Virus record (IMG/VR): IMGVR_UViG_2667527582_000004
Strand: one strand, 5' to 3'
From: a virus
Lineage: Duplodnaviria > Heunggongvirae > Uroviricota > Caudoviricetes
DNA length: 13,399 bases
A program made the translations under genes and the position numbers. Positions 12,225 to 12,961 of the stretch are shown piece by piece. Under the pieces are notes generated by a model, which did not search any database, was not told the DNA's origin, and saw only the letters and a program-made list of their open reading frames with translations. Position 1 is the first letter of the stretch. Each line of letters begins with the position of its first letter.

Positions 12225-12472
12225 CTTGCTGATATTCCCGATAACGCAAAATTGCGCTGGCTGACTTGTTGCATTGCAAAAAGTTAAGCAGGAAGGCACG
12301 GCCTGTAAGATGGGATGCAGTAAGTAGTTCAAGGCTACCTTGTGCTGGCACGCACAGTTAAGCCGTCGGTGCTGGATATCCCCCACTGGGGGAAAAGCTG
12401 GCTACATCCCTCACATCTGAGGACTGATAACGCGACATTGCGCTGGCTGGCAAAGTGCAAAATTGCACGATG

Positions 12473-12607
12473 GCCTAACCCATTGATTATTTCGAAAACC
12501 TGCAATGCAGGAAATCGGGGAAGTAAGCCTAAGCTATTGATTGTTTCGAAAACCCCCATTGGGGGATGTCGGGAAAGTAAGACTAACCCATTGATTCTTC
12601 CACAATC
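12473..12607. repeat. 2.5 copies of a 54-bp tandem repeat (27-bp conserved half plus 27-bp palindrome-bearing half)
   Basis: Conserved halves GCCTAACCCATTGATTATTTCGAAAAC (12473-12499), GCCTAAGCTATTGATTGTTTCGAAAAC (12527-12553), GACTAACCCATTGATTCTTCCACAATC (12581-12607); the intervening halves carry CTGCAATGCAG and CCCCCATTGGGGG and share the tail TCGGGRAAGTAA. Confidence 0.65.
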
Positions 12608-12937
12608 CTCAATTTGAGGAGGCCGGAACGTCTACATAGCTGCATCGCCGTAATGATGATTCAGCCCACCAGCCAAATCAGCACAGCAACGACAGAATAG
12701 CCCGACACAGAAAAACCACGAATATGGGGTTTTTGTTATGACATGGTCATGATGACCACTCATACAAAACAGGTAAAGCCCACCAGCCTGATTAAAGGTT
12801 AACCGGAAAAAAGCCAGGTATCCAATCTCGATATGGGGATCCCTATATCGACATTAACGCCCACTAAAACTGTGCATATATGCATAGAAAAAGCATCCAC
12901 CAGCTTTATGACGGATGCCGCTCATCTTATAAATAAT

Positions 12938-12961
12938 CGTGTATTGCAGTGTGTATTGCGA
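12938..12961. repeat. two tandem variant copies of the TGTGTATTGCAA 12-mer (candidate arm-type sites at the other end of the element)
   Basis: CGTGTATTGCAG (12938-12949) and TGTGTATTGCGA (12950-12961), in the same orientation as the three copies at 2246-2300. Confidence 0.5.

Follow-up and report, generated by a model that had tools for sequence, protein, structure and literature searches.

Repeated IHF-Site and Palindrome Units Resembling Phage roi Segments in the Non-Coding End of a Helper-Embedded Satellite: A Candidate Regulator-Binding Array

Introduction

Satellites residing inside prophages, designated as helper-embedded phage-inducible chromosomal islands (HE-PICIs) or helper-embedded satellites (HES), have been described by Tommasini, Mageeney and Williams (PMC10111431 for the motif of the phage attachment site, attP). 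The present analysis concerns an element of this type in the virus record IMGVR_UViG_2667527582_000004, the whole 13,399-nucleotide stretch of which is called here the window. Positions 2119-13046 of the window are an HE-PICI satellite of ~10.9 kb inserted in a lambda-type portal gene, and the object of study is the non-coding tail at its right end. The satellite type and its attachment (att) motif are already known. Compared with the HE-PICIs and Gram-negative cos PICIs Eco567.11capE and EcCICFT073, the element is of the same type and has the same gene order, the same doubled TGTATTGC motif and a lambda-like cosN with a divergent cosB, and it carries its own Nu1-like TerS rather than Rpp. Little is known about the means by which Gram-negative PICIs and helper-embedded satellites detect and exploit the lambdoid phages that help them.

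The second described system to which the tail is related is the roi/rha family of lambdoid phage genes. Genes of this family encode a winged helix-turn-helix (HTH) Rha domain, which in roi is fused to a KilAC domain, and among solved structures there was none for Roi. Roi is described in the literature as a DNA-binding protein. The rha gene is subject to regulation by integration host factor (IHF), and in hosts defective in IHF its product prevents phage growth (PMC4936722); proteins of this family are known mainly for making phage growth IHF-dependent.

According to the analysis presented here, the tail may be considered, with moderate confidence and from sequence comparison, as an array that would bind helper Roi/Rha-family proteins together with IHF and act as a decoy or a sensor, followed by a putative RecBCD-attenuating cluster of Chi sites and an att arm.

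Array of Predicted IHF Sites and Palindromes

The left part of the tail (12222-12640) is built of units with a common layout, in which an IHF site, predicted from its match to the consensus, is followed after ~10 bp by a 13-15-bp palindrome ("box") with a single central base. The features of this part are given below, for units 1-3 together with the phage roi type that they resemble and the box identity to that cognate allele.

12222 to 12279, minus strand: degenerate first unit with the IHF-like TATCAGCAAGTTA (12222-12234), the palindrome CGCAAaaTTGCG (12245-12256) and the palindrome TTGCAtTGCAA (12269-12279)
12375 to 12468: palindrome modules TCCCCCAcTGGGGGA (12379-12393), CCTCAcatcTGAGG (12409-12422) and GTGCAAaaTTGCAC (12455-12468), including the second copy of the 24-mer GATAACGC..GCTGGCTG (12426-12449)
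12473 to 12526, minus strand: unit 1, IHF consensus AATCAATGGGTTA (12476-12488) and palindromic box CCTGCAaTGCAGG (12499-12511), HK022 roi type; box identity to HK022 13/13
12527 to 12580, minus strand: unit 2, IHF consensus AATCAATAGCTTA (12530-12542) and palindromic box CCCCCAtTGGGGG (12553-12565), VT2-Sakai/Shiga toxin (Stx) phage roi type; box identity to VT2-Sakai 12/13
12581 to 12634, minus strand: unit 3, IHF consensus AATCAATGGGTTA (12584-12596) and palindromic box TCCTCAAtTTGAGGA (12606-12620), roi type of an enteropathogenic Escherichia coli (EPEC) prophage, phi330 and Lahn2; box identity to the EPEC prophage 13/13

When any unit was compared with a non-cognate allele, the box identity was 8-9/13. 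Each unit contains one perfect match to the IHF consensus WATCAANNNNTTR, and these three matches, spaced 54 bp apart on a single strand, are the only ones in 13.4 kb, compared with a mean of 0.74 in shuffled sequences; a fourth, relaxed match at 12222-12234 precedes the first palindrome. The degenerate first unit can be aligned by eye to the unit variant CGCTAACCCGCTGATATTTTCGGAAACC, and the first 38-40 nt of the tail are its most widely shared piece, with 97-100% matches in sampled genomes.

The two blocks of the unit are conserved in different ways, as indicated by 37 equal-length unit variants from satellites. In this set the IHF block CTAACCCATTGAT is kept at at least 80% per column, while the box varies in sequence and keeps its symmetry through double changes: the most variable pair of the box is T-A in 22 variants, C-G in 10 and G-C in 5, with no mismatches. 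Six box types were seen, and the arrays hold 1-4 units, mostly of different types.

The density of symmetric sequence is also unusual. The tail contains 7 perfect inverted repeats in which the arms measure 6 bp or more and the spacer 0-2 bp, versus 0.57 ± 0.73 in shuffled sequence, none of 1000 dinucleotide shuffles reaching 7, and equal-sized windows in the coding part of the island contained a mean of 0.62. The initial annotation, made from the sequence alone, had described a repeat- and palindrome-dense non-coding stretch at 12225-12961, and all features that it had listed are present, some of them one base away from the positions given; its pair of 24-bp direct repeats (12240-12263 and 12426-12449) is 92% identical. 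The 54-bp tandem that it had recorded in 2.5 copies does exist, but as three in-register copies over 12473-12634. In the repeat search the copies 12473-12526, 12527-12580 and 12581-12634 were 100%, 80% and 61% identical to the first, and the Tandem Repeats Finder call covered 12473-12596, with 2.3 copies and 80% matches. Absent from the earlier list were the box of unit 3, the IHF consensus in every unit, the three Chi octamers described below and the continuation of non-coding DNA to the att core, and the tail really spans 12225-13033, past the previously assigned end of 12961.

Relation of the Units to roi and rha Genes

In reverse complement the units correspond to codons ~42-59 of roi in lambdoid phages, just after the Rha-domain HTH. 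Over 53 nt unit 2 shares 90.6% identity with the opposite strand of roi in VT2-Sakai, Stx2 II and related phages, and unit 3 is 92-96% identical over 50 nt, again on the opposite strand, to roi / Rha-KilAC antirepressor genes; annotations of the phage genes matching these two units read Roi, anti-repressor or Rha-KilAC antirepressor. The similarity of unit 1 to HK022 roi is in the IHF block (15/17) and in the box (13/13), with identities of 1/9 in the spacer and 3/14 in the 3' part. In the roi genes of HK022, VT2-Sakai and the EPEC prophage a palindrome followed by the IHF consensus is located at codons ~42-57, and the distance from the IHF motif end to the palindrome centre, measured by eye, is 16 nt in both unit 1 and HK022. 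A fourth allele, matched by a unit of another satellite, is the gene of a Rha-domain "DNA-binding protein" of Stx1a phages, in which a perfect palindrome of 25 bp occupies the same codons. In the Stx1a-converting phage Stx1_14040 (L313, 880-950) this intragenic 25-bp palindrome, CAATTTCCACAGaCTGTGGAAATTG, lies in a Rha-domain gene between the cI/cro region and ant.

Based on the allele-specific box identity and on the IHF consensus in the three roi alleles examined, the sequences indicate that satellites have collected the palindrome-plus-IHF segment, and only that segment, from several roi/rha alleles. The boxes in satellites are as symmetric as those in phages or more so, for example, CCCCCATTGGGGG versus phage CCACCATTGGGGG, and CCTGCAATGCAGG versus GCTGCAATGCAGG.

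The satellite contains no roi/rha gene, BLAST of the whole tail against phages gave matches at units 2 and 3 only, and the CAGCCaacGGCTG unit type had no phage match. Fifteen palindrome patterns from this tail and the tails of relatives were absent from the helper prophage and the roi loci examined, except for one chance HK022 match. When Roi N-terminal domains were used in tblastn, only unit fragments of 16-25 aa were obtained, and a longer match in the satellite L002 was broken by stop codons.

Non-Coding Nature of the Tail

Two long open reading frames (ORFs) are present in the tail, 91 aa on the plus strand (12342-12617) and 74 aa on the minus strand (12335-12559). Protein coding was nevertheless rejected by several lines of evidence: translations of either strand (91-aa and 96-aa) had no Pfam match, homologous tails are separated by indels of 1, 4-5 and 14 nt that shift the reading frame, and substitutions among them have no third-position bias. 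RefSeq annotates nothing over the tail in 49 complete genomes that carry it, so that the previous opinion that no convincing ORF covers this stretch is borne out by Pfam, RefSeq, indel and codon-position checks alike.

Promoters and terminators in the tail were no more frequent than in shuffles. A cos site within the tail was rejected, as cosN is located at 11245-11256, ~1 kb upstream, and none is inside 12225-13046. A CRISPR array was rejected as well, because here the flanks are constant and the hairpin is variable, the reverse of CRISPR. RNA repeats of a type III toxin-antitoxin system were likewise rejected, there being no ORF downstream of the repeats before att, and the tRNA scan gave only a truncated tRNA-Met in the unrelated left contig of the window.

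Chi Sites and the Middle Part of the Tail

The middle part of the tail (12640-12930) contains three Chi sites accompanied by hairpins and palindromes, as follows.

12666 to 12673, minus strand: Chi site 1, 5'-GCTGGTGG-3'
12711 to 12734: A/T-flanked hairpin AAAAACCAC-gaatat-GGGGTTTTT, which belongs with TGGTCATgATGACCA to the module 12711..12758
12744 to 12758: palindrome TGGTCATgATGACCA, placed at 12745-12759 in the initial annotation
12760 to 12870, minus strand: the most shared module after the first 40 nt, with Chi site 2 (12780-12787), an ACCGG-A-run-CC(A)GGT hairpin and the 24-bp palindrome TCGATATGGGGATCCCTATATCGA (12828-12851)
12897 to 12904, minus strand: Chi site 3, beside the palindrome TGCATATATGCA (12873-12884)

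The module 12711..12758 is common to satellites at other integration sites. Chi site 2 is invariant in 15/15 variants of its module, where it stands beside the hairpin and the CGATATGG...CCATATCG palindrome. The window contains 10 Chi octamers versus 0.41 expected; all of them are within the island, and the three in the tail lie within a span of 240 bp. The enrichment is also found in relatives, since 45 unique tails have a Chi density of 1.93 per kb with at least one Chi in 44/45 and a prevalence of the minus strand (51 minus, 23 plus), while the 3 kb upstream of the tails have 0.40 per kb and the opposite bias (39 plus, 10 minus).

Chi is a polar signal, and minus-strand sites here would act on RecBCD moving rightward, and plus-strand sites left of cos on RecBCD coming from the right end. 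RecBCD entering at the left cosN end (11245) and moving right would thus meet minus-strand Chi after 1.4-1.65 kb, and the cluster would attenuate degradation and promote RecA-dependent recombination of the satellite. We infer this role in protection and recombination from the orientation and conservation of the sites and from the classical biology of Chi in lambda red gam phages. Among the satellite genes annotated here there are no Gam or Red genes.

Seven more Chi sites are distributed across the rest of the island. The plus-strand ones at 4533, 5834, 7432 and 8765 have the orientation expected for RecBCD that enters at the cos right end, while the minus-strand sites at 7171 and 8791 are off this pattern. 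A further plus-strand site (11292-11299) lies 36 bp to the right of cosN, within the presumed satellite-specific cosB.

Attachment End

The last part of the tail (12938-13046) includes two features of the att region.

12938 to 12961, plus strand: doubled motif cgTGTATTGCAgtgTGTATTGCga (HE-PICI attP motif TGTATTGC, upstream copy), a presumed integrase arm-type or AlpA site
13034 to 13046, plus strand: att identity block AAGGCGATGTATG (attR), obtained from alignment with the intact HK630 portal and attL of NZ_CP031134

The partner motifs are at 2246-2269 and 2289-2300. The HE-PICI doubled motif tgTGTATTGCantgTGTATTGCa stands 81 bp before the attP centre and again 132 bp after it (PMC10111431), and in the window the motifs 12938-12961 and 2246-2269 end ~79 bp and ~129 bp from the core centre, respectively. 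The lambda-type portal gene B resumes at 13047, and its counterpart at the attL end is found at 2119-2123, at the very beginning of the contig. The TTGCA motif, which had been noticed both in the tail palindromes and in the 12-mers near the element ends, is really shared by them.

A PICI adjacent to thiM (L002, 3335-3358) has near its att end its own doubled motif, two copies of TGTGTGGTCAGT, whose TGGTCA core recurs in the window as the inverted repeat TGGTCATgATGACCA. The doubled TGTATTGC motif was stated to be absent from other PICIs (PMC10111431); PICIs may generally have doubled motifs of this kind that differ in sequence.

Distribution and Mosaic Structure

Pieces of the tail were found in 1201/5426 complete E. 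coli genomes, and unit-array matches, phage roi genes included, in 686 of the 5426. In NZ_CP031134, a complete genome, 12225-12961 is 100% identical and a lambda-like prophage has its portal gene interrupted by this right end. In related satellites the tail neighbours thiM, mdtJ or clpS or lies inside portal B, and in further relatives it is followed by capsid E, terminase A, phoQ or a peptidase gene. The segment 12225-12626 is conserved at 99.3-99.5% identity in satellites with P27-type terminase genes, flanked by thiM and mdtJ. The tail is also independent of the replication module, as the satellite of NZ_CP031134 possesses a RepA-type helicase and an identical tail. Downstream of homologues of a 93-aa satellite gene 45 distinct versions of the tail were distinguished, composed of short modules in reshuffled order. 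In relatives, the downstream ORFs that were tested proved to be mostly flanking genes, which leaves little of an earlier remark that satellites commonly carry accessory cargo at this place, apart from one DNA methylase that could be cargo.

In species-representative genomes neither a protein-anchored scan nor a unit-pattern scan gave matches, and an IMG/VR scan with the 14-mer IHF block returned mostly chance matches. The same IHF/box array occurs in another satellite type (L107, 12400-12700; L108, 7320-7390) at the att end beside alpA, with the satellite genes on the opposite strand. One L107/L108 unit extends the roi homology ~17 nt further (GGATAACACCATTTTTA), as would be expected if it had been captured directly from roi of a phage.

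Candidate Function of the Array and Alternative Explanations

The interpretation of the array as protein-binding DNA is based on its conservation in two protein-site-like blocks, one of which is the IHF consensus, and on the literature that ties rha to IHF. Clerget and Boccard (1996) reportedly found that HK022 Roi binds a site in its own gene near an IHF site, with IHF stabilising the binding. We infer that helper or competitor Roi/Rha-family proteins would bind their cognate palindromes, aided by adjacent IHF binding and bending, and the 54-bp spacing (~5 helical turns) would probably set successive units on one face of the helix. As the satellite replicates autonomously, the array could titrate the regulators (decoy) or report their presence to the satellite (sensor), and in this way may affect the helper phage. 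The roles that had been proposed in the initial annotation are, taken together, partly supported, and the one in best agreement with the evidence is a decoy array for a helper regulator, because the units copy the roi/rha segment in three allelic versions.

Several facts weigh against this interpretation. As roi is absent from the helper prophage in NZ_CP031134, this particular helper is not the target of the array; the prophage encodes Gam, which would make Chi irrelevant during the lytic growth of such helpers. Rha-domain alleles with near-identical recognition helices, DNVKRTIETLAKNG and DSVKRTIETLAKKG, carry different palindromes, which argues against a simple helix-to-box code. No promoter that a sensor could control adjoins the array, and TGGTCATgATGACCA, the 24-bp CGATATGG palindrome, GTGCAAaaTTGCAC and TGCATATATGCA had no source or partner found. 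The outer pairs around the box are 85% paired with plus-strand G-U and 60% on the minus strand, and the G-U pairing on the plus strand hints at an RNA role.

A rather unlikely explanation, though one whose probability is not negligible, is recombination debris or a recombination hotspot. In this case the units would be scars of recurrent exchange, illegitimate or driven by nucleases, between satellites and phage genes of the roi/Bro network, kept only because the satellite end tolerates junk, while the palindromes would be targets of recombination or cleavage, or would be held symmetric by template-switch correction, without a regulator-binding function in the satellite. Consistent with this, the short modules of the mosaic tail differ between relatives in order, presence and copy number, some satellite units carry ~17 nt more roi homology, nothing is coding in the tail, and the nearby Chi sites would favour recombination. 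However, only one 54-bp roi segment is kept, as an in-register tandem in three allelic versions, with the perfect IHF consensus in 3/3 units, boxes that equal or exceed the phage-gene boxes in symmetry and keep it via double changes across the 37 variants, and arrays that mostly mix box types instead of amplifying one.

A stronger version of the regulator-binding interpretation, which appears doubtful, considers the array as a multi-specificity, DNA-only operator "sponge" directed by satellites against lambdoid phages and made of captured self-binding roi/rha segments, which, after its amplification through replication of the satellite, would sequester the regulators and IHF away from helpers or competitors and thereby reprogram or block their lytic development. 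If this is true, the box mix of each satellite would be a heritable record of the phage alleles that it has met, loosely like a spacer repertoire but acting by titration.

Next, an element acting at the RNA level is improbable. It was proposed earlier as a structured non-coding RNA, and may be imagined as plus-strand read-through hairpins antisense to roi mRNAs, or as a structured or protein-binding RNA, that would silence or sense helper roi. Units 2 and 3 are indeed the reverse complement of roi coding sequence with 90-96% identity, the units are co-oriented with all satellite genes, and the box together with its flanking sequence can fold into a hairpin of two helices, the outer of which reaches its 85% pairing only with plus-strand G-U; the inner helix of the box is equally consistent with a DNA palindrome. 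Against this, Rfam was empty at gathering thresholds, with a sole permissive match (E=5.2, 15.9 bits versus the 40-bit threshold), and the fold z-scores of -1.25 (plus strand) and -2.0 (minus strand) are near shuffles. Furthermore, conservation is in two blocks and not across the unit; unit 1, whose similarity to HK022 roi is limited to the box and the IHF block (spacer 1/9), has the appearance of two protein sites and not of an antisense RNA; the perfect IHF consensus of each unit is left unaccounted for, and neither promoter nor terminator brackets the array.

The regulator-binding interpretation should also be compared with an extended attP arm, in which the IHF sites and palindromes would be accessory sites of the satellite intasome or excisive complex (Int, AlpA, IHF). 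The array adjoins att, the L107 array is also near the att end, IHF sites are typical of attP arms, and TTGCAtTGCAA shares TTGCA with the Int-arm motif. This is nevertheless very improbable, as the units are 400-570 bp from the core, far past the -81 and +132 published for the motif, have their homology in a phage regulator gene and not in att regions, and form an array 99.3-99.5% identical at different integration sites, including a thiM-adjacent satellite with the different doubled motif TGTGTGGTCAGT. Consequently, the "attP-proximal recombination region" of the initial annotation holds for the last ~100 bp, with the motif 12938-12961 and the core 13034-13046, and fails for the array, which has different flanking genes in relatives.

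Scarcely credible is a replication origin, partition or incompatibility site of iteron-like repeats, despite the resemblance of tandem repeats with IHF sites to plasmid origins such as pSC101 and R6K and the presence of primase-helicase and single-stranded DNA-binding protein (SSB) genes in the satellite, since a 100% identical 12225-12961 occurs with a RepA-type helicase module (L001) instead of the D5-type primase, a separate repeat-bearing gap (8140-8424) adjoins the primase gene, and no Par or Rep gene is linked to the array, so that a formerly suggested centromere-like or incompatibility site is without support.

Genomic Context of the Satellite

The window consists of 3 contigs joined by N10 runs at 2109-2118 and 13267-13276. 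Positions 1-2108 contain a 554-aa ORF, presumably asnB, and the truncated tRNA-Met, and are unrelated to the tail. Neither the left contig nor the right one (13277-13399) is contiguous with the satellite, and the tRNA-Met of the left contig is therefore not the integration site of the satellite. The right flank is the portal gene B, with the core mapped against the intact HK630 portal, which places the element among the HE-PICIs; the left flank of the satellite was lost from the window at the contig join.

The satellite genes include a tyrosine integrase int (2318-3559), an AlpA-type HTH, a Bro-N protein, a D5-type primase-helicase (6385-8139) and SSB, and further homologues of the lambda capsid E and decoration D proteins, a second AlpA-like protein, a Nu1-like TerS and the 93-aa phrog_1561 protein of unknown function. 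An exact lambda cosN, GGGCGGCGACCT, is located at 11245-11256, upstream of the TerS gene, and its lambda-like flank, as compared with the lambda left end, runs ~20 nt and then diverges.

The Nu1-like TerS gene is frameshifted at 11795-11806 by an A6-to-A5 homopolymer change compared with NZ_CP031134 and L005, and its reading frame is split into 11378-11860 and 11686-11931; this could be either real inactivation or a draft-assembly error. The non-coding gap 8140-8424 after the primase-helicase gene possesses short tandem repeats, CCATCTACC in 2 copies and GGGTAGAG in 2.4 copies. PICI origins map beside the primase gene, and this gap is probably the satellite origin of replication.

The satellite of NZ_CP031134 (L001) is 97.7-99.8% identical to the window satellite at its ends and has a different central module (window 4553-8487), in which the RepA-type helicase replaces the D5-type primase, a case of module swapping between satellites with common ends. 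The lambda-like helper prophage hosting it (NZ_CP031134, 89000-113000) encodes Bet and Exo besides Gam, lacks rha as well as roi, carries IS1 in the immunity region and IS621 in the capsid gene, and may be defective.

Significance and Comparison with Known Systems

If the array binds Roi/Rha proteins, it would provide a defined DNA target for these regulators in at least four specificities. It would also represent a parasite of viruses that copies the intragenic regulatory site of a virus instead of encoding an interfering protein, and would explain the conservation of an "empty" end in many E. coli satellites. The Chi cluster leads to the idea that cos satellites lacking Gam rely on Chi to survive RecBCD. 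Both the array and the Chi features are useful as markers for satellite ends, which current annotation pipelines leave blank.

In the literature searched no earlier description of a roi-derived IHF/box array or of a Chi cluster in PICIs was found. In term searches two HES papers, PMC10111431 among them, were found to mention neither palindromes nor non-coding DNA, and IHF only as being unlike the att motif; non-coding or intergenic DNA is not mentioned in the Rpp paper either.

The closest counterpart of the array is the intragenic site of lambdoid roi (HK022) and rha (phi80, P22), which has the same module of an odd-centred palindrome, a gap (16 nt as measured in unit 1 and HK022) and WATCAANNNNTTR. 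In the phage genes the module exists in one copy, intragenic and in sense orientation, whereas the satellite has 3-5 non-coding tandem copies of different allelic types. Chi-dependent protection and recombination are known from lambda red gam phages and rolling-circle plasmids, and the exact Chi octamer is present in the tail, clustered, co-oriented and conserved in an E. coli cos-packaged replicon with no annotated Gam or Red. As differences, the cluster adjoins att instead of being spread along the genome, and some helpers supply Gam.

In the satellite P4 the P2 proteins Cox and Ogr act on P4 promoters, which lets the satellite read the state of its helper. Both P4 and the array carry sites, known in the former and putative in the latter, for helper DNA-binding proteins on satellite DNA. 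The P4 sites overlap promoters with a known output, while no promoter was found at the array, and the array sites, unlike those of P4, appear to be copied from inside a helper gene and in several specificities. Tandem protein-binding sites without gene output that act by sequestration are represented by datA, which binds DnaA, and by plasmid iteron incompatibility loci. The array, with its putative sequestration, differs from them in having several specificities, which are borrowed from the host phage of the parasite and are each paired with an IHF site.

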